Source: a virus (lineage: Duplodnaviria > Caudoviricetes). From it: 64,000 nucleotides of DNA. The translations under genes and the position numbers were made by a program. Positions 5,969 to 51,255 of this stretch are shown piece by piece (within the stretch, counting starts at the first letter, position 1; each line of letters begins with the position of its first letter). Below the pieces are notes generated by a model. It saw nothing but the letters and a program-made list of their open reading frames with translations, made no database searches and had not been told where the DNA came from. The stretch is taken from IMG/VR virus record IMGVR_UViG_3300021124_000001, one strand, 5' to 3'.

Positions 5969-6190
5969 ATGTCTTTGGTTAGAGTTACTGGCACAAATTA
6001 TGTACGAGATGTCCAAACTATGGCTATTATGCCTGTGGACAATACTGAAAAAAATGAATATTATGCTAAACTTCGTGTGATTAAAGGCCAAAAAGAAGAA
6101 ATAAATAAGATAAGGTCGGAAATCGATGGCATTAAATCGGATGTCAGTGAGATAAAAGTTCTACTGAAACAACTTATAGGTAAAGAATAA
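5969..6190 (+). CDS. Small conserved phage coiled-coil protein
   Basis: ATG at 5969 just after the upstream stop; [14 protein letters not shown]...EIKVLLKQL. Confidence 0.6.
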
Positions 6191-9100
6191 TGGCAAATAC
6201 AGTTCCAATTTTAGGTTATGCTAACACCTTTGGTGACTGGGTTGTTGCGACAAACGCAGGATCCAATGAAATCAATAGCATTGGTAAAACTAACTGGACA
6301 AAAGATTCAGGTCAACTTATTTTGAATGGTGGTCCAACAAGTTTACAAGTTGGTAACAACGCTATTATTCAGGGTCAATTACAAGTTACTGGTACAAGTT
6401 CTTCTGCATCCATTGATAATAACTTGACAGTTGGTGGCCAAGTATATCTAACAAACACAACACAAAGTTTGGCGGCATCTGGCGTGATGTTTGCTAACGG
6501 TAAATTGTATGCTACAAATACCGGCATCAGTTTACAAGTATCCAACAACACAGTTATGGGTGGCTACTTAAGTGTTGCTGGTAATGTAAACGTTACAAAC
6601 ACCGTTACCGTGACAGGTTACGCAAACCTACAAAGCAATCTGTCTGTTTATGGCCCAACAGTTCTATCAAACACACTCACAGTAACAAAAGATTCTACAT
6701 TACAAGGTAACGTAGCAATTTCTCTTGATACAACGGTCACAGGTAATATTGTTGCACAAAACACGGTAAACGTATACGGTAAAACCACTGTAAACTATCT
6801 ACAATCTAATACAGCAATTAACACAGCATCTTTGAGTGTTGTTGCTAACACTTATTCAGGCAATTTGATTGCAAACAGCGCAGTTACCTCAGCAAGTTTA
6901 GCAGTTTCAGGTAAATCTGTATTGACAGGACAAGCTAACACTGGTGCAGACTTAGGTGTTGGTGGTAATATTTACGTAACAGGTAACGAAGTCATTACTG
7001 GCACAACCACGATGACAGGTAAAGCCAACACAGTAGCAGACATAGGTATTGGTGGTAATGCTTATGTTTCAGGTAAAACAACATTAACAGGTCAAGCCAA
7101 CACTGGTGCAGACTTGGGTGTTGCTGGTAATGCTTATGTTTCAGGTAAAACAACATTAACAGGTCAAGCCAATACAACCAACGATTTGGGTATTGGAGGT
7201 AATGCTTATGTGACAGGTTCAGGAAACTTTAACAACTCAATCACAGTCAACACTGGTGCTACTATTGGTGGTATAAACATTACACCTTATGCAGTTGCAT
7301 CATATGCATCACAAAACATTACTGCTGGTTTTGCAAATGCGGCTTATACCGCTCAAAATACAACAGCAATTTTTGCCAATTCGGCATATACAACAGCTAA
7401 TGCATCATATGCATCACAAAACATTACTGCTGGTTTTGCAAATGCATCGTTTGTTGTGGCCAATAGCGCATCATCTAACACAGTGACAACTCAAGGTGTT
7501 GATGCAACTCAAAACACCAACATTTCTTCTGCACAATCTTTTGCAAATAGTGCTTTCATTTTAGCAAATAATATTGTAACTGGTTCACAAACAATCTCTG
7601 CAATCACTGTTTCTGGTACAACAACATTAAATGGTCAAGCAAACACTAAAGATATTGGTGTTGCAGGAAACATATACATGACAACATCAGGAACATTGAA
7701 TGTTCCTTATTACCTAAACATGCAGAATAGCACATCAAGTGCAAACATTTATAACCTATCAGTTGGTTCTGGTGGCTTAAGTGTTTTAGGTAATTTCACG
7801 ATCAACGGCACTACAATCTATAACACACCAACATTCACACTGAGTGCTGGTACACCTTTAGTTTCAGGTCAAACCGCTCAGTTTGGTGCATTTAGAACAC
7901 TAAACAACCTTGCAAGTGGCACAGCGGCAAACTCCTATATTCGTTGGAATGAAACCAATGGTCGTTGGGATGCAACAGCAAACTCTTATGTTGGTAACTA
8001 TTATAATCTGTTATGGTCAAATGACTTATCCGATTCTGTAACAACAACAAGTAGTACAACAGTTGCTTCTGCAACAGCAGTTAAGACAGCAAACGCATTA
8101 GCACAAGCATCTTATAACGCACAGAACACAACTGCTATATTTGCAAATGCTGTATACACATTAGCAAACACACATACTAGCAATATTACAACAATCCAAG
8201 GTGTTGATAATACACAGAACACAGCAATAACTGCGGCACAAACATTAGCGCAAGCATCCTATAACGCACAGAATACCACAGCAACATTTGCCAATGCGGC
8301 GTTCACACAAGCAAATGCATGGAATACATTCTATACAACTGGTGGAACAATTTCTGGTGACGTTGGCATAACAGGAAACTTATTTGTTAATGGAACATCA
8401 TCTTACATCAACGTATCAACATATCAAACTGTAGATTCATTGATTGAATTGGCCGCAAATAACCTGTCTGATTCTGTTGACATTGGTTTCTATGGACAAT
8501 ATGTAAGCTCAGGAACAAAATATTCCGGTCTTGCAAGAAAATCTGCTGGTAATTATTATTTGTTCCAGGGCTTGTCAAGCAATCCAACAAGTAATAGCAT
8601 TGGAACAATTGCACCAGCAAACTACGCAACATTGTCAGCAAACATTGCGGCCGGTTCTATTACCGCATCGCAAGCAATTGGTATTGCATCTGGTGGTACA
8701 AACAGTTCCACATTTACAAATAACACTATAACCTATTACAACGGTACTTCGATTGCTTCATTGACGAACCCCTCTGTGACAACCGGTTGGGTTGGTGGTC
8801 CATTATCGATTCCACAAATTAATATTGACTCCTTTGGTCGTGTCATTGGTGTTCAAGCATACGCTGGTCCTGGTGGTGCACAAGGTCCACAAGGCGCTCA
8901 AGGTGTTCAAGGAGCGGCAGGCGTTCAAGGCGCAACAGGTTTCCAAGGATCTCAAGGTGTTCAAGGTGCCGTTGGTTCACAAGGTGCTACTGGTGCACAA
9001 GGAGCAACCGGATTCCAAGGTGCTACAGGACCACAAGGTCTTCAAGGTACTCAAGGTGCAACTGGACCACAAGGTCTTCAAGGTACTCAAGGTGCAACTG

Positions 9101-9891
9101 GGCCACAAGGCGTACAAGGAGCGGCAGGAGTTCAAGGTGCAACAGGCTTCCAAGGTGCTACAGGACCACAAGGTCTTCAAGGTACTCAAGGTGCAACTGG
9201 ACCACAAGGTGTTCAAGGTGCCGTTGGTTCACAAGGTGCTACTGGACCACAAGGTCCACAGGGCTTTACATCAGGAGCATACTCTTATGTGACAGCTTTA
9301 GGTGTTGGTGTACAAGGTGCTCAAGCATCTGGTACATTAACTACAAATGGTCCTTTAGTTGCAAACGGTGCTTTGTATTTGGGCACACAAGGGTATTCAA
9401 ATCAGGCACCAAACACTGGAGTGTTGTTCTTGTATGGCCCTGCGGCCGGAACCACAACAATCCAGCCAGCATCAGTTGCTGCCGGAACAATAATATCTTC
9501 TTCATACAATAATTTTGTTTTGAATTATGGAACACAAGCCTTTGCATCTTTCAATACAGGAGGTGCTACGTTCCTTGGTGATGTTACTGCATTTGGATCA
9601 CCTTCTGATATTAACTTAAAAGAAAATATTAAAAGAATTCCAAATGCACTCGATATGATTGAACAGTTGAATGGTTATACATTTAACTACAAGAAAAAAC
9701 CAGATGTTAAAATGATTGGTGTTATTGCTCAAGAACTTGAAAAAGTTGCACCAGAACTTGTCTACGAGTTTAAAGATTTAGAAACTGGAGAAGTTAGCAA
9801 GGCAGTTCGTTATGAACAAATTTCAGCTATCTTGATTGAAGCAGTTAAAGAGTTGAAGTTGGAGATTGATGAACTTAAGAAAGGTCAATAA
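6190..9891 (+). CDS. Tail fibre with collagen segment and C-terminal peptidase S74 intramolecular chaperone
   Basis: Beta-rich repeats, AFxxAN heptads, G-X-Q collagen (about 8875-9270), SDINLKENI...GVIAQE...[15 protein letters not shown]. Confidence 0.85.
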
Positions 9892-12995: not shown

Positions 12996-15410
12996 ATGGC
13001 TATTGCAAATACAACAATTCAAGTACGCAAATCCGGAACGACAGGAGTTAAACCGAATTCACTAGCCAATGGTGAGTTGGCGATTAACTTTGCCGACGAT
13101 AAGTTGTATTATGTAAATAGTCAAGGCAACATTTCTTATTTTTATGGCGCAAATAATGGGCCATCTTTTTCAACTGCCAATGCAAACGGCACTCTAGTAA
13201 TAGCAACCACACCAAACGATACGTTAAGTATTTCTGGAGCAAACGGTGTCACCGTAGCGGCTTGTACCACCACAAAATCTGTAACTATTGGTTTTATGGG
13301 TGCTACTGGTGCACAGGGACCTCAAGGATATCAAGGCGTTCAAGGATCCACTGGACCTCAGGGCAGTCAGGGTGTACAGGGTGCAATCGGTGCTCAAGGA
13401 CCTCAGGGTAATCAAGGTGTACAAGGTGATATCGGACCTACAGGACCACAGGGTAATCAAGGTTTAACTGGTGTTCAGGGTTCTCAAGGTATTCAGGGTG
13501 CTACTGGACCTCAGGGCAATCAAGGCGTACAAGGTGCAATTGGTGCACAGGGTCCCCAAGGATATCAAGGCGTTCAAGGATCTACTGGACCTCAGGGCAA
13601 TCAAGGCGTACAAGGTGCAATTGGTGCTCAAGGTGCCACAGGTTCCACTGGACCACAAGGTACTACTGGACCTCAGGGCAATCAAGGTGTACAAGGTGCA
13701 ATTGGTGCACAAGGTGCACAAGGTTTTCAGGGTGTACAAGGCAATACAGGACCACAGGGCAGTCAAGGTTATCAAGGTGTCATTGGTGCACAAGGTGTTC
13801 AAGGTTCTACAGGACCACAAGGTGTTCAAGGTTCCACCGGGCCAACTGGACCACAAGGTTTTCAAGGATTTCAAGGTGTTCAGGGTGCTACTGGACCACA
13901 AGGTAACCAGGGCGTACAGGGTGCTGCCGCCGGTGTTAACCCAAGTAACTACATCACACAAGCAAAATTAGCCAACAATCAAACCATACCAACAGGAACA
14001 GATACTGTTGTTGCTTTTGGCTCAGCAGATTTTGATCCACAAGGTTGGTTAAACACAAGTAATTATAAAATAACACCAAACGTTGCTGGTTATTATGAAA
14101 TTACGTCTAGTGTAGACTTAGGTTCGGTGCCTGGAAATAATCAAACTAATCTTCAACTTCGCAAAAACGATAATAGTATTAGTATTAGTCAACAACCTTC
14201 AGCCAATAATACAGCACCAGTAACTTTACAAGCAACGAGAACAATTTATTTGAATGGTTCTACAGACTACATCACAGCAAGTGTGTGGCAAGGTTCTGGT
14301 GGAAATATAACACTATCAACAGGCATTGGTATTTGGATCACAGTAACATTAATCTCATATGGTATTAATGGTGCTCAAGGTGCTCAAGGTGTTCAAGGTG
14401 CAACTGGACCACAAGGACTAACTGGTGCACAAGGTAGCCAAGGTATTCAAGGTGCCACTGGACCTCAAGGTACAAATGGTACTCAAGGCGCCCAAGGTTC
14501 ACAAGGTAACCAAGGTTTTCAAGGTGTAGTTGGTGCTCAAGGTTTCCAAGGCGTCCAAGGTTCTACAGGACCACAAGGTGTTCAAGGTTCTACTGGGCCA
14601 ACTGGACCACAGGGTCTCACAGGAGCACAGGGTAGCCAGGGTGTACAAGGTGCCGCGGGAAACTATCAACCTGCATATGACCAAGCAAACAGCGCATTTA
14701 CAGAAGCAAATTCAGCTTTCGTGTTGGCCAACAATGCTCTTATTATTGGTTCCAGTGCCGCAACTTTTGCTAATGGTGCCTTCGCTCAAGCGAATTTAGC
14801 ATATGCAACAGCTAATAACGCATTAGCAAATACCGGTTCTATTATAACAGTCAACGGTTCATCACAATTATATGTAACAAACACAACAACATCAACAACT
14901 ACAACCACTGGTGCCTTAGTTGTTTCTGGTGGTGCAGGAATAACAGGTAACGTTAACGTTGGTGGTGTAATTACTGGTGGCGGCGTTAGAGCAACAACAT
15001 CGACAAGTGCTCCTAGTTCACCAACTGTTGGTGATATTTGGTATTATCCAACACTAGATGTGACATATCGTTATACATATGATGGAACAAGTTATTTCTG
15101 GGTTGACATTTCTGGTCCTTTTGCCACATACAGCGGCAACACAATACCAGGTGTGACTCAAATTGTTGCAGGTACTAACGTCACTATATCACCTTCTGGT
15201 GGTACAGGTGTGGTTACGATTAACTCATCAGGCGGTGGTGGCGGTGGCGGCGGTAATAATTCAACGAGTGCAATATTCTCAATACCAAACACTTTAGGGG
15301 CCAATACGACATTATCAACTGGTTATAATGCACTTAGTGTGGGACCAATTACTGTTAATACTGGTATAACTATAACTATACCAAGTGGACAACGATGGGT
15401 CATACTATAA
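12996..15410 (+). CDS. Collagen-like fibre protein with Mtd-like N-terminus and internal C1q/TNF-like domain
   Basis: IQVRKSG...LANGELAIN; two G-X-Q tracts flanking VVAFGSADFDPQGWLNTSNYKITPNVAGYY. Confidence 0.75.
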   Translation: MAIANTTIQVRKSGTTGVKPNSLANGELAINFADDKLYYVNSQGNISYFYGANNGPSFSTANANGTLVIATTPNDTLSISGANGVTVAACTTTKSVTIGFMGATGAQGPQGYQGVQGSTGPQGSQGVQGAIGAQGPQGNQGVQGDIGPTGPQGNQGLTGVQGSQGIQGATGPQGNQGVQGAIGAQGPQGYQGVQGSTGPQGNQGVQGAIGAQGATGSTGPQGTTGPQGNQGVQGAIGAQGAQGFQGVQGNTGPQGSQGYQGVIGAQGVQGSTGPQGVQGSTGPTGPQGFQGFQGVQGATGPQGNQGVQGAAAGVNPSNYITQAKLANNQTIPTGTDTVVAFGSADFDPQGWLNTSNYKITPNVAGYYEITSSVDLGSVPGNNQTNLQLRKNDNSISISQQPSANNTAPVTLQATRTIYLNGSTDYITASVWQGSGGNITLSTGIGIWITVTLISYGINGAQGAQGVQGATGPQGLTGAQGSQGIQGATGPQGTNGTQGAQGSQGNQGFQGVVGAQGFQGVQGSTGPQGVQGSTGPTGPQGLTGAQGSQGVQGAAGNYQPAYDQANSAFTEANSAFVLANNALIIGSSAATFANGAFAQANLAYATANNALANTGSIITVNGSSQLYVTNTTTSTTTTTGALVVSGGAGITGNVNVGGVITGGGVRATTSTSAPSSPTVGDIWYYPTLDVTYRYTYDGTSYFWVDISGPFATYSGNTIPGVTQIVAGTNVTISPSGGTGVVTINSSGGGGGGGGNNSTSAIFSIPNTLGANTTLSTGYNALSVGPITVNTGITITIPSGQRWVIL

Positions 15411-16371: not shown

Positions 16372-17046
16372 ATGTCAAACATAATTAACGCAGACAACGG
16401 TGTAGTCTCAGGTACGCCAGGAATAAAATATACAGCAGATAGTAGTGGTATAATACAATTCCAGAGTAGTGGTAATAACTCATTATTAATTGATTCTAGT
16501 AGATATGTATCTGCTACGGTCAACGGTTTGGGTAAGGGAATGTTTCCAGCAGAACAGTTATATTGTCTCCAAACAGGTTATACAGGAACACAGGCCACTA
16601 CTGCACAAAGTGTTTTTGGTGTTGGTGTTACATTAGTTGGTTCAACTGTTTATCAGTTTGAGTTAAATTTCTTCATGAGTAAATCTGCTGGCACAACGGC
16701 TCATACAATTTCATTGGGTTTTGGTGGAACAGCAACAGTAAATAATATCGCATATGATGGACCAACTCAATACAACACCACAAACCTCACAACAGGTGCT
16801 CCGGCATTCTTTTATAGCAACACAACCTCCGCAACTGTTTTTACATCTTCAATAACTTCAGCTTCAACATATACATTTACTGTTATGAAAGGTATCGTGT
16901 CAATTAACGCAGGCGGAACATTTATCCCGCAATATACATTAAGTGCTGCACCGGGCGGAGCATACACAACAGCAGCAGGTAGCTACTTCAAAATCTCACC
17001 ATTGGGTGCTAGTGGATCAAATACAAGTATAGGAACATGGGCTTAA
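16372..17046 (+). CDS. Fibre tip protein, paralogue 1
   Basis: Shares GIVSINAGGTFIPQY.LSAAPGGAYTT...GTWA with the next ORF. Confidence 0.6.
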   Translation: MSNIINADNGVVSGTPGIKYTADSSGIIQFQSSGNNSLLIDSSRYVSATVNGLGKGMFPAEQLYCLQTGYTGTQATTAQSVFGVGVTLVGSTVYQFELNFFMSKSAGTTAHTISLGFGGTATVNNIAYDGPTQYNTTNLTTGAPAFFYSNTTSATVFTSSITSASTYTFTVMKGIVSINAGGTFIPQYTLSAAPGGAYTTAAGSYFKISPLGASGSNTSIGTWA

Positions 17047-17047
17047 T

Positions 17048-17719
17048 ATGTCAATAATTTTAGATGGTACAGCAGGCATAACTACACCAGCAATAATAGC
17101 ACCTTTGGCATTAACTACTGCCTCGCTGTCATCGCCGGCGGTTGCAGGACAACTGGAGTATAACGGCGGTATACCCTACTTCACTCCTTTGGGAACTCAG
17201 CGTGGTGTTATTCCAGGTATGCAGTATTACATTTTAAATACTGCATACGTAGGTTCAAACTCAACTGGTGCACAAAGTTTATTTGGTGTTGGTGTCACTT
17301 TATCATCGTCAATTGTTTACCAGTTTGAATGTTCTTTATATATGACCAAAACCGCTGGCACAACATCGCACAATATGAGTTTATTGTTTGGTGGAACAGC
17401 AACAGTCAACTCAATACTTTATCAAGGTGTAGAAAACCAAAGCGGTTTGGCTTTAACAGGACCCCAAGGAACTCCTGTATCTTTTATAGCAACCTCAGCG
17501 GCCGCTAGCCAAACAACATCTACAACGGCTAACGCAACAGAATATATACAAATTGATTTTAAAGGAATAGTATCAATTAATGCTGGTGGAACATTTATAC
17601 CACAATATTCGTTGAGTGCGGCGCCCGGTGGTGCATATACAACACAGGTTGGTAGTTACTTCCTAATATACCCAACAGGATCCGCAGGTAGTAATATAAG
17701 CGTAGGAACTTGGGCTTAA
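17048..17719 (+). CDS. Fibre tip protein, paralogue 2
   Basis: C-terminal domain closely similar to 16372-17046. Confidence 0.6.
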   Translation: MSIILDGTAGITTPAIIAPLALTTASLSSPAVAGQLEYNGGIPYFTPLGTQRGVIPGMQYYILNTAYVGSNSTGAQSLFGVGVTLSSSIVYQFECSLYMTKTAGTTSHNMSLLFGGTATVNSILYQGVENQSGLALTGPQGTPVSFIATSAAASQTTSTTANATEYIQIDFKGIVSINAGGTFIPQYSLSAAPGGAYTTQVGSYFLIYPTGSAGSNISVGTWA

Positions 17720-17803: not shown

Positions 17804-18271
17804 ATGGCATTCCCAAGTACACCCACCAACGGACAGACAGCAACGGTAAATGGAATAACATATTCCTATTCATCGAGCCTGAGTGCTTGGACCAGAGTTC
17901 AAGTTAACGCAAGTGCTGTGAGTTTCTCATCTAACACAATAACAGTCAACACAAGTTCATTTTTAATTGGCACAACGTTAGTTACTAGCACAACTACGGC
18001 TAACCAATCATTGTATACATATTCAACTTCACAGTATCGTTCTGGAAAATTTATGTGTCAAATGACAAGCGGAACATCTTATGGTGTAACAGAATTGTTG
18101 TTGATACATGACGGAACAAACTGTTACATGACACAATATGGAGATGTAAACAGTGGAACAGTTTTAGGTGTATTTGATTCTTCAATAACATCCGGAAACG
18201 TATCATTACTTTTTACACCAACTAACGCATCAACGACAGTAAAAGTTTCTGGTAACTTAATTCCCATATAA
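17804..18271 (+). CDS. Virion structural/fibre protein
   Basis: MAFPSTPTNGQ N-terminal motif; YRSGK...TELLLIHDG...YG domain of T4-like structural proteins. Confidence 0.6.
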   Translation: MAFPSTPTNGQTATVNGITYSYSSSLSAWTRVQVNASAVSFSSNTITVNTSSFLIGTTLVTSTTTANQSLYTYSTSQYRSGKFMCQMTSGTSYGVTELLLIHDGTNCYMTQYGDVNSGTVLGVFDSSITSGNVSLLFTPTNASTTVKVSGNLIPI

Positions 18272-18304
18272 ATATTAAATTATAGTAAAAGGGGATAGTG
18301 AACC

Positions 18305-20092
18305 TTGGCTAATCAAATTAACTTTGTAGTTAAGAACGGTCTAACCGTCAACACTACAAGCGTCATCAATTCATCCGGCAACTGGATAGGTCCAAATACT
18401 TTCATTACTGGACCACAGGGCTTTGCTGGTGCTCCAGGTGCACAAGGTCCAGCAGGACCACAAGGTGTGCAGGGTTCTTCTGGTTCTCAAGGTCCTCAGG
18501 GTTTTACTGGAACGACAGGACCAGCAGGCGTACAAGGTGCTCAGGGTGCAACAGGCTTTCAGGGCGTTCAAGGAAGTACAGGTGCAACAGGCGTTCAAGG
18601 TGTCCAAGGTTCTGCTGGTGCACAAGGTCCTGCTGGCGTTCAAGGTTCTCAGGGCAGTGCAGGCGCATCAGGTGTGCAAGGTCCGCAAGGCTCAACTGGA
18701 GCACCAGGAGTTCAAGGCGCTCAAGGTCCTTCTGGTGTTCAAGGCCCTGCTGGAGTTACTGGTCCAGCAGGGTTTCAAGGTAGACAAGGTGCAATAGGCG
18801 GTACTGGACCCCAAGGTGTTCAAGGAGCACAAGGCTCTACTGGACCACAAGGGTTTCAAGGTGTACAAGGCGCAACGGGCAGTACAGGACCATCAGGAAT
18901 TCAAGGACCCCAAGGTCCAACAGGAACGCCAGGTGTTCAAGGTGTTCAAGGCTCTACTGGTCCAGCAGGGTTTCAAGGTAGACAAGGTGCAATAGGTGGT
19001 AACGGACCATCAGGAGTTCAAGGACCACAAGGTGGAACTGGTGCACCTGGTGTTCAAGGCGTTCAAGGCTCTACTGGTCCAACAGGATTTCAAGGTTATC
19101 AAGGATCAACTGGCGGTCCTGGTCCTTCTGGCGTGCAAGGTCCACAAGGCTCCACTGGTGCACCTGGTGTTCAAGGTCCCACAGGTGGTACGGGTCCAGC
19201 AGGATTTCAGGGTAGACAAGGTGCAGTAGGTAGCACAGGTCCTTCAGGATTTCAAGGACCTCAAGGTGGTGGTGGTCCACCAGGTGTACAAGGTCCAACA
19301 GGCAGTACTGGTCCGTCAGGTTTTCAGGGTGTACAAGGTTCAACCGGAAGCACTGGACCAACAGGTCCAACAGGCCCCGGTGGCGGTACAGGTGCTACAG
19401 GTGTACAAGGTCCAACAGGTGGTACCGGACCATCAGGTTTTCAAGGCAGACAAGGTGCAACTGGAAGTCCTGGTCCAACAGGTCCAACAGGAAGTACAGG
19501 ACCAACAGGTCCATCAGGTGCTCAAGGTGGTACAGGACCAACCGGTGGAACTGGACCAACAGGTGCTCAAGGTTCTACAGGAAGTCCTGGTCCATCAGGT
19601 GCACAAGGTCCACAAGGTTCAACTGGACCAACAGGCTTCCCAGGTGCATTTTCAACTACAACAACACCAAACGTATCAGCTTTAGGTATTAACTGTGCAG
19701 TTGGACCAGCAGGAACAATTCAAGCACAAAACGACATTTACGCTTATTACTCAGATAAGCGATTGAAAACCAACATTAAAAATATTGAAGATGCTTTGAA
19801 TAAAATTTTATCTTTAACAGGAATATATTTTACACAAAACAGACATGCAGAAAAATTTGGTTATAATGACTATTCCAGACAAGTTGGTGTGATTGCTCAA
19901 CAGATTCAAACACATATACCAGAAATTGTCGCACCTGCTCCTTTTGATGTAGACAAAGACGGCAAGAGTATATCTGGAGATAACTACCTAACAGTTCGTT
20001 ATGAAAAACTAATACCTGTTCTCGTAGAAGCAATCAAAGAACAACAAAGAGAAATTGCTACATTGATGGAAAAAGTAAATGGCAACAGCTAA
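18305..20092 (+). CDS. Collagen-like fibre chain A with S74 chaperone
   Basis: TTG start; 138 uninterrupted Gly-X-Y triplets (18410-19651); YYSDKRLK...GVIAQQ...[14 protein letters not shown]. Confidence 0.85.
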
Positions 20093-21854
20093 TAATTTTA
20101 CAATCAAAAATGGATTAACTGTTGGAACAACACCAGTCATTGCAGCCAATGGCGTATGGATTGGATCAACAACAAACATTCTTGGTCCACAAGGACCACA
20201 AGGTCCTTCTGGTACAGCAGGTGCACCGGGTACACAAGGTTTTCCTGGTGCTCCTGGTGGCGCAGGTGCTCAAGGTCCTCAGGGTGTTCCTGGTAACCAA
20301 GGAACTCAAGGAGCTTCAGGCATACAAGGTCCACAAGGAATTCAAGGCAGTACGGGACCACAAGGATTTCAGGGCACTGCTGGTGCACCTGGTGTTTCAG
20401 GTTTTCAGGGCGTACAAGGTTCTACGGGTCCAGCAGGCGCTCAAGGCGGTGCGGCCGGTACAGGTCCAGCAGGTGTACAAGGCACACAAGGTCCGGCAGG
20501 TTCACAAGGTGTTGCTGGTGCTCAAGGTGTTGCTGGCGCTCAAGGCCCTCAAGGTCCACAAGGTGTTCAAGGACCTTCAGGATTTCAAGGTGTACAAGGT
20601 AGCACAACTTCTGGTGCTCAAGGTCCACAAGGCGCTCAAGGACCATCAGGTCCTTCAGGCTTTCAAGGAAGTACTGGTGGTACTGGACCATCAGGTGTTC
20701 AGGGTACACAGGGACCAGCAGGCGCATCCGGTGTACAAGGTCCACAAGGCGCTCAAGGTCCAACTGGACCAAACGGATTTCAGGGCAGTATAGGTGGTTC
20801 TGGACCATCAGGTGTACAGGGCACACAAGGTCCAGCAGGTGCATCTGGTGCACAAGGTCCACAAGGTCCACAAGGACCTACAGGTCCAGCAGGTGCACAG
20901 GGCGGTACTGGTGGTACTGGTCCAGCAGGTGTGCAAGGTACACAAGGTCCTTCAGGTCCAACAGGCGTTCAAGGTCCTCAGGGACCTCAGGGTCCTGGCG
21001 GACCTTCAGGTTTTCAAGGTAGCACTGGCGGTTCAGGACCAACAGGTTTTCAGGGCACACAGGGACCAACAGGACCGTCAGGTGCTCAAGGACCTCAGGG
21101 TGGCGCTGGCTCTACTGGACCATCAGGTGCACAAGGCGGTACTGGACCTACAGGACCGACAGGTTTTCAGGGCACACAGGGACCATCAGGACCTACTGGC
21201 GTACAAGGTCCACAAGGTTCACAAGGACCTACTGGACCATCAGGTGCACAAGGCGGTACTGGTCCAACAGGTCCATCAGGTTATCAAGGTTCTACAGGAC
21301 CCGGTGGTGCTACAGGTCCAACGGGACCACAAGGTCCACAAGGACCTACTGGACCATCAGGTGCACAGGGTGGTACTGGCGGTACTGGACCATCAGGGTT
21401 TCAAGGACCGCAGGGTGCTCTGTCATCATTAGGAACACAAGCGGCGCAAGTAACAGTAAATACAGGAACAACAGGAGCATCAGGCACTCTACTTGCAACA
21501 GGTAACATCACTGCATATTATTCCGACATCAGACTCAAAGACAATATTGAATTTATAAAAAACGCAGGTGAAAAATTATACACACTAAGAGGCATAATTT
21601 ATAAACACAATGAACTTGCAAACAAATATGGTTACACAGATAAAAGAACTTATTCTGGTGTGATTGCACAAGAAGTTCAAAAGATAATTCCAGAAATTGT
21701 TAAACGTGCACCTTTTGATAATGATGGTAAAGATGGAAGTTTAACTGGTGAATACTATCTAACGGTGCAATATGATAAATTGATACCACTTATTATAGAA
21801 ACAATCAAAGAACAACAAAGAGAAATTGAATCTCTTAAAGAGAGAATGAAGTAA
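20079..21854 (+). CDS. Collagen-like fibre chain B with S74 chaperone
   Basis: Gly-X-Y region 20184-21422 (413 aa, one GSTTS interruption); YYSDIRLK. Confidence 0.85.
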
Positions 21855-21855
21855 G

Positions 21856-23631
21856 ATGGCCTCAGCAAATAATTTCGTTGTCAAAAATGGCTTAACAGCA
21901 GGCACAACAGCAGTAATTAACTCATCTGGTGTTTGGATTGGACCGGCTTCATCAGCATACGGTCCACAGGGTGTTCAAGGTGGTTCAGGCCCTCAAGGTG
22001 TGCAAGGACCACAGGGTGTGGCAGGTAACCAAGGAGCTAGTGTACCGGGCGCACAAGGTGTTCAAGGTCCTCAAGGTTCTCCAGGCGTTCAAGGTACAGC
22101 AGGTGCACAAGGTGCTACTGGTGTTTCTGGTGCACAAGGACCACAAGGTGTGACAGGAGTTCAAGGTGTTCAAGGCTCACAGGGAACAGTCGGTTCTCCT
22201 GGCGCACAAGGTAGTACAGGACCAGCAGGACCAACAGGTTTTCAAGGAACTCAAGGACCAACAGGTGCAACCGGAACAGCAGGCATTCAAGGTCCAACTG
22301 GTGCACAAGGTAGCACTGGCTCTGCTGGTCCAACAGGTGTTCCTGGTGCACAAGGACCACAAGGATCACCAGGTGTAGTTGGTGTGCAAGGTAGCACAGG
22401 CTCAACAGGTGTTGGCGGAGTTTCTGGTGTGCAAGGTCCACAAGGATCTACAGGTCCTGCTGGTTTTCAGGGAACGCAAGGACCAACTGGCGCATCCGGT
22501 GTTCAAGGCGCAACAGGTAGTACCGGACCTACAGGTATTCCAGGCGCACAAGGTCCACAGGGTAGTACAGGGCCAACAGGATTTCAAGGAACTCAAGGTC
22601 CTACGGGAGCACCTGGTGTTCAGGGTGCAACAGGATCAACTGGTGTAACAGGCGTTCCAGGTGCTCAAGGTAGTACTGGTGGAACTGGACCAACAGGCTT
22701 TCAAGGAACACAAGGACCAACAGGAACTCCAGGTGCTCAAGGTAGTACTGGTGGTACTGGACCAACAGGTGTGCCAGGCGCACAGGGTCCACAAGGTGGT
22801 TCTGGACCTACAGGCTTTCAAGGACCGCAAGGTCCAACAGGAACACCAGGTGCACAAGGTAGTACTGGCGGTGGTGGACCAACAGGTGTTCCGGGCGCTC
22901 AAGGTCCAACTGGTCCAGGTGGCGGTACAGGACCACAAGGACCACAAGGTCCAACAGGCACACCAGGTGCTCAAGGTAGTACTGGTAGTACTGGACCAAC
23001 AGGTGTTCCGGGTGCACAAGGTAGTACAGGCGGTGCCGGCGGCACTGGACCTCAAGGTCCACAAGGCGGTACAGGACCAACAGGACCGACAGGTGGCACA
23101 GGACCTACAGGACCAACAGGCACACCAGGTGCTCAAGGTAGTACTGGTGGTACAGGACCAACAGGATTTCAAGGACCGACAGGACCAACAGGAGCAACAG
23201 GTTCTACACCATACCAACAAGTGGCCGCATTAGGTGTTAATACGGCAGCCGGACCAACAGGTACAGTTCAGGCCACAGGTCAAATTACTGCCATATTCAC
23301 ATCCGATGAACGACTGAAAAATATATTAAACAATATAGAAAATGCACTAGAAAAAGTCATCTCTCTGAATGGAATTTATTATACAAAAAATGATTTAGCT
23401 CGATCTTATGGTTATGAGGGAGATGAACAAGAGGTTGGTTTAATTGCACAAGAAGTTGAAGCAGTTTTACCAGAAGTTATTAGGCTTGCCCCCTTTGATA
23501 CAGATAAAGACGGAAATAGTAAATCTGGTGAGAACTATATAACAGTGATGTATGAAAAAGTTGTTCCTTTGTTAATTGAAGCCCTCAAAGAACAGAAAAA
23601 ACAAATAGATTATTTAAATACGAAAGTGTGA
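21856..23631 (+). CDS. Collagen-like fibre chain C with S74 chaperone
   Basis: Gly-X-Y region 21961-23208 (416 aa, one GASVP interruption); FTSDERLK. Confidence 0.85.
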
Positions 23632-24226: not shown

Positions 24227-25909
24227 GTGATGAGTGCAAAAAATTGCAAAATTGTGATGACAACAATGTTTCGTAATGAAGCAAAAGTTATACGTAGAAT
24301 GTTAGAATCGTGTTACAAATACATTGATTATGCTGTGATTCAAAACAACGGTTCTACAGACGGCACAGATCAAATTGTAAAAGATTTCTTTGATGAAAAA
24401 CAAATACCACTTCATTTATATAATGTAGAAGAAGGTTGGGTTGGCTTTGGTTGGAATCGGGACCACCTAACACAAACTTGTCAATCTGTTGACCACGGAT
24501 GTGATTGGATTCTAAAGATGGATTGTGATGAGGTACTTGAGATTGATGAAGACTTTGATTGGTCATTATTGGATGATAAGTCTATACAATCCTTTCATAT
24601 TGCCGCAGTTGCCGGGCCGTGTATTTACTATCGTGCATGGATGTGGAATGCAAAATTACCGTGGCGATTCAATCACGACCCTTGCCATGAAACCATATAC
24701 CTTGATGATGGTGTAACAGGTGAACAGTTTCAAAGATTTGATTTGCCTCCAAGTTTCAGACAAATTGGTTACAACGAAGGCCAAAGTTGGTCAAATCCAA
24801 CAAAGTTCATTTCAGATGCATTGATTCTTGAAGAAAAGATGATTAAAGAGAATTCTTTTTTCACTAATCCTTATCACTTCTGGTATGTTGGTAAAAGTTA
24901 CTTTGATGCATTTCAATGTCATGAATTTCCATTAGGAATAAAACAACAAAAAGAATTTGCTAAACGTTGCACATACTATTTCAAAGAGTTTATAGACTTT
25001 TCGAAACCTTCAGGCATTGATGAGATGTGTTACATGGCATCCATTTTTGGAGCAGACGGTTTAAAGTTTGTTGGTGAAACCGAACAAGCAATTGAAATGC
25101 TTATAGAGTGTGGGAAATATGCACCAGAAAGAAATGACCATCTATTTGCATTAGCATTTCTATACATGGATAAAAAAGACTGGGATTCTATGTTTGAAGT
25201 GACGTCAGAAATGATGAAACCGGAACGTACAAATCCATTTCCTAAATATGTCGTAATGATAGATAGATCGATGTATCGTGATGGTGGTACAAGAGTAAAA
25301 GAACTATATGACATTGCGTGTGACAACTCAGGCCGCAAGCCTAAAATTTACATTAATACCAATATGAAAAAGAAACTATTTGTAGTAGATGACTTCTACG
25401 CTAATCCAGATGAAGTTCGTCAGATTGCATTAGCCGCAGAATACAAAAGAGATATTCGATTCTACAAGGGTCAGCGTTCAGGTCCATTTCGATTCCCAGG
25501 GTTGAAAGAAGCATTCGAATCTATCATTGGTGAAAAGATCAACAACTGGGAAGAACAAGATATTAATGGCTGTTTTCAAATTGTAACAGCAGAAGACCCA
25601 CAGGTTTACCACCACGACTTACAAAAATGGGCTGCTATGATTTACTTGACACCAAATGCACCATTAGATTCTGGAACAAGATTACACAAATCGAAGATCA
25701 ATGGAACCATGCATATGTCTGATGATGGTATCAAAGATGCTTTTTCTGGAGGTTTCTATGATGCATCTAAGTTTGATACGATTGCTGATGCAGGCAACCT
25801 ATATAATAGATTGGTTATAATGGATGCACAAAACATCCATTCGGCAGGAAATTATTTTGGCCAAGATAATGAAACGGGCAGATTAACACACTTATTCTTT
25901 TTCGATTAA
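24227..25909 (+). CDS. GT2 glycosyltransferase + TPR-like region + C-terminal 2OG-oxygenase-like (DUF6445-like) domain
   Basis: NEA..I.R.LES, GSTDGT, DCDE (DxD); C-terminal VVDDFYANPD...YHHD...WAAMIYLTP...YNRLVI..IHSA. Confidence 0.75.
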   Translation: MMSAKNCKIVMTTMFRNEAKVIRRMLESCYKYIDYAVIQNNGSTDGTDQIVKDFFDEKQIPLHLYNVEEGWVGFGWNRDHLTQTCQSVDHGCDWILKMDCDEVLEIDEDFDWSLLDDKSIQSFHIAAVAGPCIYYRAWMWNAKLPWRFNHDPCHETIYLDDGVTGEQFQRFDLPPSFRQIGYNEGQSWSNPTKFISDALILEEKMIKENSFFTNPYHFWYVGKSYFDAFQCHEFPLGIKQQKEFAKRCTYYFKEFIDFSKPSGIDEMCYMASIFGADGLKFVGETEQAIEMLIECGKYAPERNDHLFALAFLYMDKKDWDSMFEVTSEMMKPERTNPFPKYVVMIDRSMYRDGGTRVKELYDIACDNSGRKPKIYINTNMKKKLFVVDDFYANPDEVRQIALAAEYKRDIRFYKGQRSGPFRFPGLKEAFESIIGEKINNWEEQDINGCFQIVTAEDPQVYHHDLQKWAAMIYLTPNAPLDSGTRLHKSKINGTMHMSDDGIKDAFSGGFYDASKFDTIADAGNLYNRLVIMDAQNIHSAGNYFGQDNETGRLTHLFFFD

Positions 25910-26176: not shown

Positions 26177-27445
26177 ATGAAAAATTTGAAGTTTAGTTTA
26201 ATTACTCCAGAACACAACCCAAACAATGTGAAGTTTCTGTTGGAATTGTATGATTCAATTAAAAATCAAACATATGAGAATTGGGAATGGGTGTTGTTTT
26301 TAAACAACAAATGCGTAATTGAAAACATTCCAGACATCATAAAGAACGATTGGCAAGTTAAAATTTTCAGAACAGAAGAAGCCAACACTAATGTTGGTGC
26401 AATGAAAAATCTTTCTTTTCCTTTGGGAACAGGTGATGTTCTGGTTGAAGTTGACCATGATGATTTGTTGACGCCAGACTGTTTAGAGGAATTGAACAAA
26501 GCATACCAAGACGAGACTGTTGGTTTTGTTTATAGTGATGGTGCAATCTTACACATGCAAGATGCATTCGTTCCTTATTTGCCTGAACATGGTTGGTCTT
26601 ACAGAATGTACAACTGGAAGGGCAAAGATTTATATGCAATGAATAGTTTTGAACCTACCAGCCAATCGTTAGGTTATATTTGGTATGCTCCTGACCATGT
26701 TCGTTCTTGGAGAAAATCGACATATGAACAGGTTGGTGGCCATAATCCAGAGCTTGCCATCTGTGATGACCATGAGTTGTGTATTAGAACATACTTACAA
26801 GCCAAGATGGTTCGTATTCCAAAAGTTTTGTATATTTACAGAATCAGTGGAGACAACACTTGGATTGAACGATCTGATGCAATCCAGATTAAAACAGTAG
26901 AATTACAAAGACAATATGCTCGTGCATTAGCAGAAAAAGATGCAAAAGATAAAGGATTGTTATGTGTTGACATTGGTGGTGGCTTGAATCCATATCCAGG
27001 TTACCACACTGTTGACTTGAGGCAAGATGCGGATCAGGTTTTTGACTTAAATAATGGCATTCCATTGGCTGACAATTCAGTTGGAGTCCTAAATGCAAGT
27101 CATATCTTGGAACACTTACATGATAAGACTAAGATTATGAGTGAAATCCATAGAGTCCTGGCACATGGTGGATGGGCTTTTATTGAGGTGCCAAGTACAG
27201 ATGGACGTGGAGCATTCCAAGACCCAACACATGTCAGTTACTGGAACGAAAACAGTTTCCTATATTATACCGATGCCTATTTGGCCAATTTTATAGACAA
27301 TAAAACAATTAGATTTCAGGAATACCGTAGGGAAACATACTTTCCAAATGAATGGATGAAGAACTTAAATGTTTGTGTGACTAGTGCATGGCTTGTTGCT
27401 ATTAAAGATGGTGGTGAAAGGTTCCCTGGTCTCCTAAAAATCTGA
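26177..27445 (+). CDS. GT2 glycosyltransferase fused to SAM-dependent methyltransferase
   Basis: QTYENWEW, EVDHDD, CDDHEL; VDIGGG, HILEH, RVLAHGG, AFQDPTH. Confidence 0.8.
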   Translation: MKNLKFSLITPEHNPNNVKFLLELYDSIKNQTYENWEWVLFLNNKCVIENIPDIIKNDWQVKIFRTEEANTNVGAMKNLSFPLGTGDVLVEVDHDDLLTPDCLEELNKAYQDETVGFVYSDGAILHMQDAFVPYLPEHGWSYRMYNWKGKDLYAMNSFEPTSQSLGYIWYAPDHVRSWRKSTYEQVGGHNPELAICDDHELCIRTYLQAKMVRIPKVLYIYRISGDNTWIERSDAIQIKTVELQRQYARALAEKDAKDKGLLCVDIGGGLNPYPGYHTVDLRQDADQVFDLNNGIPLADNSVGVLNASHILEHLHDKTKIMSEIHRVLAHGGWAFIEVPSTDGRGAFQDPTHVSYWNENSFLYYTDAYLANFIDNKTIRFQEYRRETYFPNEWMKNLNVCVTSAWLVAIKDGGERFPGLLKI

Positions 27446-27474: not shown

Positions 27475-28251
27475 ATGGCAACAATAACTAACAGACAAGA
27501 TTTTAAAGATTATTGTCTCCGCAGACTAGGTGCGCCAGTTATTCAAATAAACGTGGACGATCAGCAGGTCGAAGACCGTGTGGATGATGCTATTCAATAT
27601 TGGCAAGATTACCACTTTGATGGTGTTCAAAAGTTTTATTGGATACACTACGTCACAAGTCAAGATATCACAAATCAATATTTGGATGCCACACAAGCGA
27701 GAGATCAGAACGGAAATACTGTAAACATTTTAGGTATTTCTCGTATTTTCCCTTTAACTGATTCTCAGGCCTCAATCAATATGTTTGACTTGAGATACCA
27801 GTTGCGTTTAAATGAATTGTATGACTTCACTTCAGCATCCTATATCAATTATACACTGACACAACAACACCTGCGTTCTTTGGAACTCCAGTTCACTGGT
27901 GAAGTTCCTATTCGTTGGGTGCGTAACATGCAAAGATTGTACATTGATTGGGCTTGGGGTGATAATCTGGAAATTTCTACTGGACAAACCGTTATTTCAG
28001 AGTGCTATGGTGCAATCGATCCAGACACATATCCAAACGTTTGGAATGATCGTTGGTTAAAAGAATATGCAACTCAGCTCATTAAGAGAACATGGGGTGA
28101 GAACATGAAGAAGTTTGGTGGCGTTCAGTTGCCCGGCGGTGTGATACTTAATGGAAAAGAAACTTTTGATGAAGCTGTTGGTGAAATCAAAAGATTAGAG
28201 GAAGACATGATTAACGATTATTCGGGACCATTGGAGTGGTTCATGAACTAA
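27475..28251 (+). CDS. 13: Neck protein gp13
   Basis: DYCLRRLGAPVIQINVDD...KFGGVQLPGGV.LNG; synteny. Confidence 0.9.
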   Translation: MATITNRQDFKDYCLRRLGAPVIQINVDDQQVEDRVDDAIQYWQDYHFDGVQKFYWIHYVTSQDITNQYLDATQARDQNGNTVNILGISRIFPLTDSQASINMFDLRYQLRLNELYDFTSASYINYTLTQQHLRSLELQFTGEVPIRWVRNMQRLYIDWAWGDNLEISTGQTVISECYGAIDPDTYPNVWNDRWLKEYATQLIKRTWGENMKKFGGVQLPGGVILNGKETFDEAVGEIKRLEEDMINDYSGPLEWFMN

Positions 28252-28304
28252 TCAAGCGGTCCTCAAATTTCTTTTTATATAAATATATAAAAGGAGATAT
28301 GAAA

Positions 28305-28985
28305 ATGAAGGTCTACTGTATAGAAAATAAACTAGATAACAAAAAATATGTTGGTATAACAAGAGGTGAAATTGTAGGAAGATTTAAATCTCATAAACGA
28401 ATTGCTAAAAATCCAAATGATAAAAATCATTGTCACATACATAAGGCAATGTTTAAGTATGGTTTGGAAAATTTCATTGTTTATGAGATTGATTCGGCTG
28501 GGACCAAAGAAGAATTGTTGGAAAAAGAAAAACATTGGATTAAAAAATTAGATACCAAAAATAATGGTTACAATGAAACTGATGGTGGTGAAGGATGTTT
28601 TGGATGGAAAGCAACAGAAGAACAAAAAGAAGCCAATAGAAAAAGAAACATTGAAAGAACTAAAGATCCAAAATACAGAGAGTTTATATCACAAAGAACA
28701 AAAGAAGCTATGTCAAACCTTTCGGCCGAGGTTAAGAAAAAAATAAGCGATGTTGCAAAAAAGAATAGTGTAGGAAACAAACGCTCGTTAGGTAAAACTT
28801 GGACACTATCTGAAGAAACTAAAAAGAAAATAAGTGAATCTAAAAAAGGTTTCAAACATACCGATGAAGCAAAAAGAAAACTCAGTGAAAAAGCAAAATT
28901 ACGAACAGGCAGAAAACACTCACCGGAAACAATAGAAAAAATGAGAATTGCAGCAACAAACAGAATAAGAAAGGTAGGAACCTAA
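28305..28985 (+). mobile_element. Free-standing GIY-YIG homing endonuclease (Seg-like) with NUMOD3 repeats
   Basis: VYCIEN..KKYVG.T, NGYNETDGGEG, repeated H/LSEETKKKISE; own TATAAATA and SD. Confidence 0.85.
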
Positions 28986-49398: not shown

Positions 49399-50021
49399 GT
49401 GATGTTTTTAAGATTAATACGGAAGAAATTGCTTCTGGTGTACAACAACCAACAATCGAAACATTCGATTTAGTTGCAGACAGTGATCCAATCCTACGTG
49501 AGGTGATGCCAGAGTTTGACTTTGAAAATGCAATTGTGAACCCTACAGATTTTGCATCTTCTTTGGTTGAAACTTGCAAGAAGAACCAAGGCATCGGTTT
49601 GTCTGCCAATCAATGTGGATTCCGACATCGTGTGTTTGTAATGGGTGCTGGTGATGAATATGTGGCCCACTTTAATCCTAAGATTGTAGAAACCGAAGGT
49701 GAAGCACACATGCTTGAAGGATGTCTATCGTTTCCTTTACTAGGACTACGTATTACTCGTCCAGCAACCATTACTGTGGAATATCAAGACCACAATGGAG
49801 AAAAGCATACCACAAAGTATGCCGGTATTTCTGCACGTTGTTTCCTCCATGAGCTTGACCACATGAATGGAATAGTGTATACTGACCGTGTGAAGCCGTT
49901 GGCATTGAAATCTGGTGTGAACAAACGCAACAAGGTTATCAAGAGAATGGCACAATACCAATCACTATTGATGAAGCAAGCTAAACAACAACATGGCAAA
50001 AACACCACCAGAACTCGTTGA
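49395..50021 (+). CDS. def: Peptide deformylase
   Basis: GIGLSANQ, EGCLS, HELDH. Confidence 0.93.
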   Translation: MSDVFKINTEEIASGVQQPTIETFDLVADSDPILREVMPEFDFENAIVNPTDFASSLVETCKKNQGIGLSANQCGFRHRVFVMGAGDEYVAHFNPKIVETEGEAHMLEGCLSFPLLGLRITRPATITVEYQDHNGEKHTTKYAGISARCFLHELDHMNGIVYTDRVKPLALKSGVNKRNKVIKRMAQYQSLLMKQAKQQHGKNTTRTR

Positions 50022-51255
50022 AAAACAATGGTTGGAATGGAAAGAAAACAATACTTCCATTCCACACATTGATGAAGATACACTCAAAAAAAATCTAATA
50101 TCCGATTTGACGTATGCGTCACAAATGGATGTTAAAGAGTATACATTGTACCAAAAATGGTGTGAAGTAAAAGAGCGTTATCCTGTAGATGAAGTTTCTA
50201 CACTTTGGGGTCCTGAACTCCAAATGGTCAACAAAGATCAAGAAAACATTATCAAAGAAGTTAAGAAAAACTTTTGGATGCCTACTGGTCCAGATGATTA
50301 TGATAAACTTCAACCAATGCTAGAACTATCTAACGGTGAACTAGCAGAAACCTGGAATGCAGTTCGCACTTTCTCATCCACAATGAAGAACAATTCCAAC
50401 ATTGGTCGTAACCTGTTTTATACAGTCAAAGATCGTGTTACAGGAAAGTATCTTGGTGTTATCTGTATCTCTTCCGACTTCTTAGACTTGACTCCTCGTG
50501 ATACGGCCATTGGCTGGTCACGAGATGTTAAGACACAACAAGGTATGATTAACCATACAGCAATTGGTTCTACTATTGTTCCTTTACAGCCTCTTGGTTA
50601 CAGCTACATGGGTGGTAAATTGCTTGCACTTCTGTGCCTTGCAGATACTGTCCAAAAAGATTGGAAAGAACGTTATGGAGACACTCTTGTTGGCGTTACT
50701 ACAACGTCACTCTACGGAAAGACCAAAGCCGGTGGGCTTTCTCAATACGATGGTTTGGAACATTGGCAGAAGATGGGATTTTCTAGTGGGTCTGTTGCTT
50801 TTGAGCCTAAGCGCACAACTGCTAACATGGTCTACAAATGGATCAAAGAAAACCACACAAGAAAATACTTCGAATGGTGGGAAGCAAAGAACTCACAAGG
50901 ATTACCACTGAAACGTGACCACAAGAATCGTTCACTAAACTTTGCATATGGTAAGTTGAAGATTCCAAAAGAACTCATCCGTACAGAACACCAACGAGGC
51001 ATTTACTTTTCTCCGTTGTACAATAACACCAACGAATTTCTCCGTAAAGAAATCGGTGATGCGGATTTAGTAAAGAGTTTCGATACGTCCGAAGAAGCAT
51101 TGTCTAATATCTGGAAAACCAAATATGCTAAAGGTCGTATTCGTCAATTACAGAAACAAAATAAAGTCTCATATGAAAACCTATTCTATGATGACCTAAT
51201 CTATTTGACTTGGGAAGAAACCAAGGCAAAGTATCTACCCCAAGTTGGTAGATAA
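49993..51255 (+). CDS. DUF4338 / Druantia DruA-like protein
   Basis: IGRNLFY.V.D..TGKYLG, RD.AIGW, VPLQPLG...GGKLLA, TTTSLYG. Confidence 0.7.
   Translation: MAKTPPELVEKQWLEWKENNTSIPHIDEDTLKKNLISDLTYASQMDVKEYTLYQKWCEVKERYPVDEVSTLWGPELQMVNKDQENIIKEVKKNFWMPTGPDDYDKLQPMLELSNGELAETWNAVRTFSSTMKNNSNIGRNLFYTVKDRVTGKYLGVICISSDFLDLTPRDTAIGWSRDVKTQQGMINHTAIGSTIVPLQPLGYSYMGGKLLALLCLADTVQKDWKERYGDTLVGVTTTSLYGKTKAGGLSQYDGLEHWQKMGFSSGSVAFEPKRTTANMVYKWIKENHTRKYFEWWEAKNSQGLPLKRDHKNRSLNFAYGKLKIPKELIRTEHQRGIYFSPLYNNTNEFLRKEIGDADLVKSFDTSEEALSNIWKTKYAKGRIRQLQKQNKVSYENLFYDDLIYLTWEETKAKYLPQVGR

Follow-up and report, generated by a model that had tools for sequence, protein, structure and literature searches.

In the DNA of a T4-like freshwater myovirus, and in that of some twenty related phages, three neighbouring collagen genes very probably make one obligate ABC collagen fibre, in which three different chains are co-assembled in one helix. 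The genes, which we call alpha, beta and gamma, occupy positions 18305-23631 of a 64,000-nucleotide stretch of the myovirus (the window; IMG/VR record IMGVR_UViG_3300021124_000001, Duplodnaviria, Caudoviricetes) and lie in its fibre island ahead of the neck gene. The conclusion is drawn from sequence comparisons among relatives. The mixed three-strand collagen design is so far described for animal collagens, and we found no viral or bacterial heterotrimeric collagen in the literature, a search that most subscription journals lay outside. With less assurance, we also favour a fuller reading, namely that this would be an ABC heterotrimeric collagen of phage origin, independent of animals, with a self-removing S74 chain-selection code, lectin-like display on a single strand and its own hydroxylation and glycosylation enzymes.

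The earlier note on this DNA described three adjacent open reading frames (ORFs) of 595, 591 and 591 residues, and we confirm them, all on the plus strand. Alpha (18305..20092; TTG start) has a 35-residue N-terminal cap that ends at 18409, 138 uninterrupted Gly-X-Y levels (18410-19651), a 33-residue neck and an S74 domain from Ser483 (19751). Beta (20079..21854) overlaps alpha by 14 nucleotides; its cap ends at 20183, its 138 levels (20184-21422) contain two interruptions, one Gly-to-Ala replacement and one G4G, and after the neck its S74 domain begins at Ser482 (21522). Gamma (21856..23631) starts 1 nucleotide after beta and comprises a cap with a Tyr-type linker (to 21960), 139 levels (21961-23208) with a single G4G interruption at a different site from that of beta, a neck and an S74 domain from Ser483 (23302). 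The rods measure 138/136/138 in triplets and 138/138/139 in Gly levels.

Other features that had been claimed for the chains also hold. In all three, 35 residues precede the first Gly-X-Y, and the collagen spans are 414, 413 and 416 residues; we set the 35-residue leader aside as evidence, because it reflects inherited family homology. The 13-triplet period is borne out by the lag-13 autocorrelation (0.25, 0.27 and 0.33 with level counting), which exceeds the best lag of all 2000 shuffles. From N to C terminus, counts per third fall for Gln (24 to 12, 24 to 18 and 23 to 13 in alpha, beta and gamma) and rise for Thr (9 to 22, 8 to 19 and 13 to 27), a trend that is only partly general in relatives (32/51 and 36/51 chains) and that we likewise set aside. 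Charge is nearly absent (four Arg in the alpha rod, no charged residues in the beta and gamma rods). The S74 domains, with SDxRLK intact, score 44.6-47.1 bits against a Pfam cut-off of 22 (PF13884), and the profile search also matches 7dc3 and 6f45; S74 fills the C-terminus, and no other non-collagen Pfam domain was detected in the chains. Two independent other assemblies carry the identical 5327 base pairs (bp) apart from one single-nucleotide polymorphism, at 19698 in the neck of alpha (C in the window, T in both others).

Length matching by Gly level

If the three chains share a helix, we expected their lengths to match in Gly levels; if they form separate homotrimers, length should change by residue, and the slope of raw deviation on register correction should be 0. 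Length was taken as the distance between the Trp of the cap and the Ser at the cleavage site in 20 complete trios; in the counting of levels, a triplet that had lost one residue was scored as a whole Gly level, and a single inserted residue was not scored. Chain length varies from 116 to 649 residues among these trios and rods range from 25 to 203 Gly levels between phages, while the correlation between chains is 0.98-0.997; thus the co-varying collagen lengths that the earlier note proposed to look for in related trios are found, with one gene per class. With lengths counted in levels, the median spread was 4 residues instead of 8, and the match became closer in each of the 13 informative trios (Wilcoxon p 1e-4, permutation p<1e-4); as the trios share ancestry, these p-values overstate independence, which counts against our reading. 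The slope was -1.08 ± 0.09 without four outliers and -1.34 ± 0.38 with all trios.

Similarly, interruption-rich chains lie up to 25 residues apart yet differ by 0-2 levels. The chains of locus L014, for example, have 561, 566 and 584 residues and 187, 188 and 186 levels, where one chain has 27 interruptions and a second is free of them; those of L019 have 489, 496 and 501 residues and 166, 166 and 167 levels, and those of L005 have 202, 202 and 203 levels. Shared descent alone is insufficient to account for this match, because whole-triplet insertions and deletions (indels) are common in such repeats, yet the level differences stay at 0-2 over an eightfold range of totals. The chains also change in parallel. 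Between L012 and L034, which are 94-95% identical, each orthologue has a separate 72-bp indel (at levels 86/92/86), and the comparison of the window with L005 gives +64 levels per chain, with all three chains shifting by -1 modulo 13 along the periodic zone. The repeat period is common within trios (profile r 0.55, compared to 0.11 between phages); growth of the three genes by the same repeat unit would give them this shared 13-level period.

The earlier note had left the matched lengths open to two interpretations, an ABC heterotrimer or three fibres under one length constraint. One ABC trimer fits better, because the match follows Gly register and not residue number. We regard as unlikely that AAA, BBB and CCC form three separate homotrimeric fibres of common physical length, held by one type of socket and possibly bundled. 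The literature presents S74 fibres and prokaryotic collagens as homotrimers (PMC8968730), each chain of the trio comes with a complete cap and an intact chaperone, and some assemblies contain unit-size mismatches, all of which would suit separate fibres. However, the length of such fibres should track residues, whereas a 25-residue excess of one-residue insertions is tolerated at 0-2 levels, and a rule on total length requires neither same-size indels at the same level nor a conserved phase between chains. Three fibres would add no receptor variety, since their cleaved tips are near-identical 30-residue necks. Moreover, tandem paralogues outside the three classes are often unmatched, as in L028 and, counted in triplets, L131 (37/46/33) and L196 (55/59/39).

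Chain classes, gene order and exceptions

Relatives gathered by searches with the C-terminal domains include 52 full-set loci (29 distinct), and every one has exactly one alpha, one beta and one gamma; incomplete sets are tiny fragments or are cut by contig ends. In a tree of the C-terminal domains, three clades of 20 rows are found, to each of which every trio supplies one row (support 100/100 for alpha, 97/96 for beta and 94/84 for gamma). With lone S74 outgroups in the tree, support is 96/98, 100/97 and 98/87, respectively, and three divergent rows fall outside the clades. This placement of the paralogues of each trio in three supported clades points to an old alpha/beta/gamma split. Class-diagnostic residues concentrate in the terminal helix of S74, which in the S74 family forms a trimeric coiled coil, and are near-invariant across deep divergence. 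Complex prediction for the three C-terminal domains gave 0.37, compared to 0.36 for one control. Variable copy number and independent lengths, which had been named as the outcome that would speak for other arrangements, are absent among class-assigned genes; the exceptions are L237 and the repeat-unit outliers described below.

Gene order is alpha-beta-gamma at 16 loci and beta-alpha-gamma at 13, and it switches within three strongly supported groups (at least 3 swaps), with no class ever lost in complete loci. The swapped blocks consist of the alpha end plus the next start and the beta end plus the next start. The Tyr-type linker follows the beta chaperone in 14 of 17 cases and occurs elsewhere in 0 of 34, whichever the gene order; thus, recombination within the rods has exchanged two blocks. 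Gene deletions and duplications would be expected from the same process, yet complete loci hold one of each. The 35-residue caps gave a tree without clean clades, and they were typed on the linker. Cyclic permutation of the cap-chaperone pairing, although it suits a handed trimer, was not counted, because a block swap gives nothing else.

These results bear on the idea that the chains form mixed, non-obligate trimers (AAB, ABC and others), which would need matched register without a strict code. Register matching is accounted for equally well by such mixtures, which would also sit well with the ~47-51% identity of the window C-terminal domains to one another and with a matched two-gene locus, L256. 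Mixed trimers would permit gene loss, whereas all 52 complete loci have one of each class despite rod recombination, and the class residues hardly vary; we therefore consider them quite improbable.

It is more improbable still that the match is a by-product of recent triplication, gene conversion of the rods or assembly through repeats. Repeat arrays do convert and mis-assemble, the caps lack clean clades and L237 resembles a collapse, but independent assemblies agree and the DNA of the rods is distinct. The window rods share 0.2-0.3% of 20-mers, with a longest common string of 20-21 nucleotides, and between L012 and L034 orthologues share 65-70% of 15-mers and paralogues 6-14%. We rejected gene conversion of collagen DNA on this low sharing between paralogues, and recent triplication because each genome has its paralogues spread over three clades.

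Several further observations weigh against a single obligate helix. Register correction leaves a gap of 15-109 residues in five of the 20 trios. Of these, L011 and L258 have inserted domains, while L008, L020 and L242 differ by ~1-3 repeat units, as do the partial loci L015, L036 and L240. The related two-gene locus L028 is unmatched (49 versus 30 levels), one contig, L237, has no alpha, and we found no interruptions that are aligned across chains. The catalytic motif is intact in all three S74 domains, so each chain could trimerise alone; SDxR[LM]K is kept in all 51 chains of 17 trios. The unit-mismatched genes carry exact repeats of 83-189 bp that are mostly missing from the short chain, which fits both assembly collapse and real deletions. 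L237 (363-1541) is identical to the sequences of L079 that flank deletions removing alpha and 14 gamma levels, and it is cut upstream; it may be a mis-assembly or a two-gene variant.

Two-gene versions, all outside the three classes, include L028 (5103-6917) as well as L256 (6627-10101; 136/134 levels) and L341 (1264-5581; 76/72 levels), the last two of which are matched. L028 and L256 have second genes that group as sisters (100/97), a GT1 gene follows the L256 pair, and an A2B fibre is possible for L256.

In several relatives, domains are inserted in one or two chains and the levels are nearly unchanged; thus, one strand can carry a loop, and rod length could change step by step in this way. 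Globular domains, PA14/GLEYA or others, lie inside single chains of L011 (5859-10925), L259 (105-4388), L243, L245, L247, L258 and L272. The alpha chain of L259 has four inserts, and the host chain is ~1.5-4 levels shorter per insert. The third chains of L252 (8417-10315) and L255 (8552-10441) have ~370 extra N-terminal residues before the cap (propeller-like repeats and a Thr-rich linker), and L262 (2046-4477) and L263 (5934-8366) each show an apparent split of the third chain between two ORFs.

Proposed assembly and relation to known systems

We propose that late, translationally coupled synthesis, as the gene spacing suggests, would supply the chains at ~1:1:1. The three different S74 chaperones would pick one another, probably via the class-specific residues of the last coiled coil, and would nucleate a short triple beta-neck and set register, after which the rods would wind together as a single triple helix of 138 levels, ~120 nm at 2.9 Å per residue, in keeping with the register match. 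A single strand could bear one-residue interruptions or whole inserted domains while the other strands run on. The chaperones would then self-cleave at the Ser of SDxRLK, where S74 chaperones are cut, and the N-terminal caps would dock in a gp9-like socket encoded upstream to form a tail or virion fibre, as the fold and the genomic slot of these genes suggest. Selection would hold the three genes equal in levels. Linkage leads us to guess that neighbouring oxygenases and glycosyltransferases decorate Pro, Thr and Ser of the rod; because the rod is nearly without salt bridges and has little Pro in the Y position, such decoration gains in probability, and we put it at just under an even call. 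The window trio has no obvious receptor head, and it most likely serves as an adsorption or spacer fibre that is long, flexible and uncharged.

The trio resembles S74-chaperoned proteins (PF13884; the long tail fibre distal subunit 6f45 and MYRF, 7dc3) in its S74 domain, SDxRLK motif and terminal helix, and it sits, like S74 phage fibres, in the fibre region of a T4-like myovirus. Unlike them, it consists of three coupled, class-fixed genes rather than one, with a collagen rod instead of a beta-helix and almost no head after cleavage. With prokaryotic and phage collagens (BclA, Scl2 and prophage collagens) it has in common a long Gly-X-Y rod, a terminal trimerisation domain and Thr/Gln in the Y position, and possibly, as in BclA, O-glycosylation of the rod (PMC8968730, PMC11923368). 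Prokaryotic collagens are said to be homotrimers (PMC8968730), whereas the trio has three register-matched chains. Charged residues take 2% of the X/Y positions, so there is no salt-bridge code in the trio rods.

Animal ABC collagens (type IX, VI and IV alpha3-4-5) likewise have three genes, equal helix length and chain-specific interruptions, with chain choice inferred in the C-terminal domain, and, as in fibrillar procollagens, the C-terminal domain of the trio would be cut off. In contrast to animal collagens, no NC1, COLFI or other animal domain was detected, chain choice would use viral S74, and Pro is mostly in X (25.6%) and not in Y (6.6%); the Y position, with Gln at 52%, Thr at 17% and Ala at 11%, is not rich in Pro or hydroxyproline. 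The trio would be a convergent design and is not a member of the animal heterotrimeric collagens. Mimivirus collagen, which has its own hydroxylase-glycosyltransferase (PMC8968730), is similar as a virus-encoded collagen beside glycosyltransferase and oxygenase domains. The CryoSeek glycofibril TLP-3, a pond-water triplex of unknown source with small-small-Ser/Thr repeats, O-glycans and a 2.9 Å rise (10.1101/2025.09.30.679562), is a lead rather than a match, because only ~22% of Y positions in the trio rods are Thr/Ser (52% are Gln) and the rods have no Lys.

If the ABC assignment is correct, it would provide the first heteromeric S74 chaperone, as far as the same literature search reaches, and a small self-removing domain would set both chain choice and register. 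It would also provide a natural system, expressible in E. coli, for registered heterotrimers and single-chain (incommensurate) interruptions, whose structure is not understood and for which crystal structures are lacking (PMC11923368). Rods in the trio family run from 25 to >200 levels and provide natural examples of single-chain interruptions and of inserted domains.

Neighbouring genes and genome setting

The small gene upstream of the trio (17804..18271, plus strand) encodes a candidate fibre socket, whose predicted C-terminal 8-stranded beta-sandwich resembles the C-terminal domain of T4 gp9, the long-tail-fibre connector. The model (pLDDT 93) has 1qex as its top Foldseek match (E 3.7e-5) and aligns with residues 176-299 of 9f4a_LA over 104 residues (VIA Z 12.0, 2.0 Å); tailspike C-terminal domains are next best (Z 10.6). 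In most trio loci, the gene ahead of the trio likewise terminates in a homologous domain. As in T4 gp9-gp34 attachment, the cap family opens the adjoining fibre genes, and the cap is likely an anchor. The parallel is limited, since a gp9-like fold also ends tailspikes and the likeness of the cap to the gp34 N-terminus is weak: in an ungapped scan of ~1280 windows, gp34 residues 8-18 came second, and HMM comparison with the gp34 N-terminus gave no match. Searches with the cap against PDB, PHROGs, GenBank phages and the Atlas returned no significant match.

A T4-type late promoter consensus (TATAAATA; 18267..18274, plus strand), one of four in the window, precedes alpha; among 22 trio loci, only 4 have the consensus in the preceding 80 bp. 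It is followed by a conserved 20-nucleotide translation-start element (18290..18309, plus strand) composed of a Shine-Dalgarno sequence, a fixed spacer and the TTG start of alpha. This element has 81 matches in IMG/VR. In each of the 56 distinct cases it starts a gene whose N-terminus is cap-like; in 34 the preceding gene is gp9-like, and in most the gene is a lone fibre gene, which may or may not be a collagen. Thus, the slot after the gp9-like gene and start element holds one fibre gene in most other phages, and the trio replaces one fibre gene. The element, TTG included, is kept across very different phages far beyond the Shine-Dalgarno sequence, and it is possibly a translational operator. 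Further upstream, two tandem paralogues of 224 and 223 residues (16372-17046 and 17048-17719), 1 nucleotide apart and with no Pfam or PHROG match, could be a second hetero-oligomer.

Downstream of the trio, on the plus strand, are three candidate rod modifiers: a 2OG-Fe(II) oxygenase (PF13640; 23639..24214), a fusion of a GT2 glycosyltransferase with DUF6445 (24227..25909), in which an HxD...H motif is oxygenase-like by inspection, and a fusion of a GT2 glycosyltransferase with a methyltransferase (26177..27445). We counted neighbours at 25 true trio loci, with the lone genes L038, L178 and L194 taken out. A 2OG oxygenase lies within 4 kb downstream at 23/25 trio loci, 8/28 single collagen-S74 loci and 9/108 non-collagen S74 loci; the corresponding counts are 24/25, 4/28 and 0/108 for the GT2-DUF6445 fusion and 20/25, 3/28 and 0/108 for the GT2-methyltransferase fusion, a contrast between trio and non-trio loci that is inflated by kinship. 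The nearest solved relatives of the 2OG oxygenase are PKHD-type hydroxylases, all of them weak matches, and a second oxygenase is present in many relatives. In aquatic T4-like phages, fibre-island glycosyltransferases are generally interpreted as host-LPS enzymes (PMC7029224); the trio suggests a substrate for them.

Two further collagen genes in the window, one with 45 triplets and S74 (6190-9891) and one with 71+34 triplets and no S74 (12996-15410), fall outside the three classes and are not length-matched. On the 3' side of the trio are neck, sheath, terminase, portal and major capsid genes, and Methylophilales, Pelagibacter and Synechococcus myophages have major capsid proteins with 63-65% identity to that of the window. 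A GIY-YIG/NUMOD3 homing endonuclease gene (28236-28985) lies ahead of the neck gene, and a protein with a Druantia DruA domain (PF14236, E 7.5e-20) is encoded at 49993-51255 in this lytic phage.

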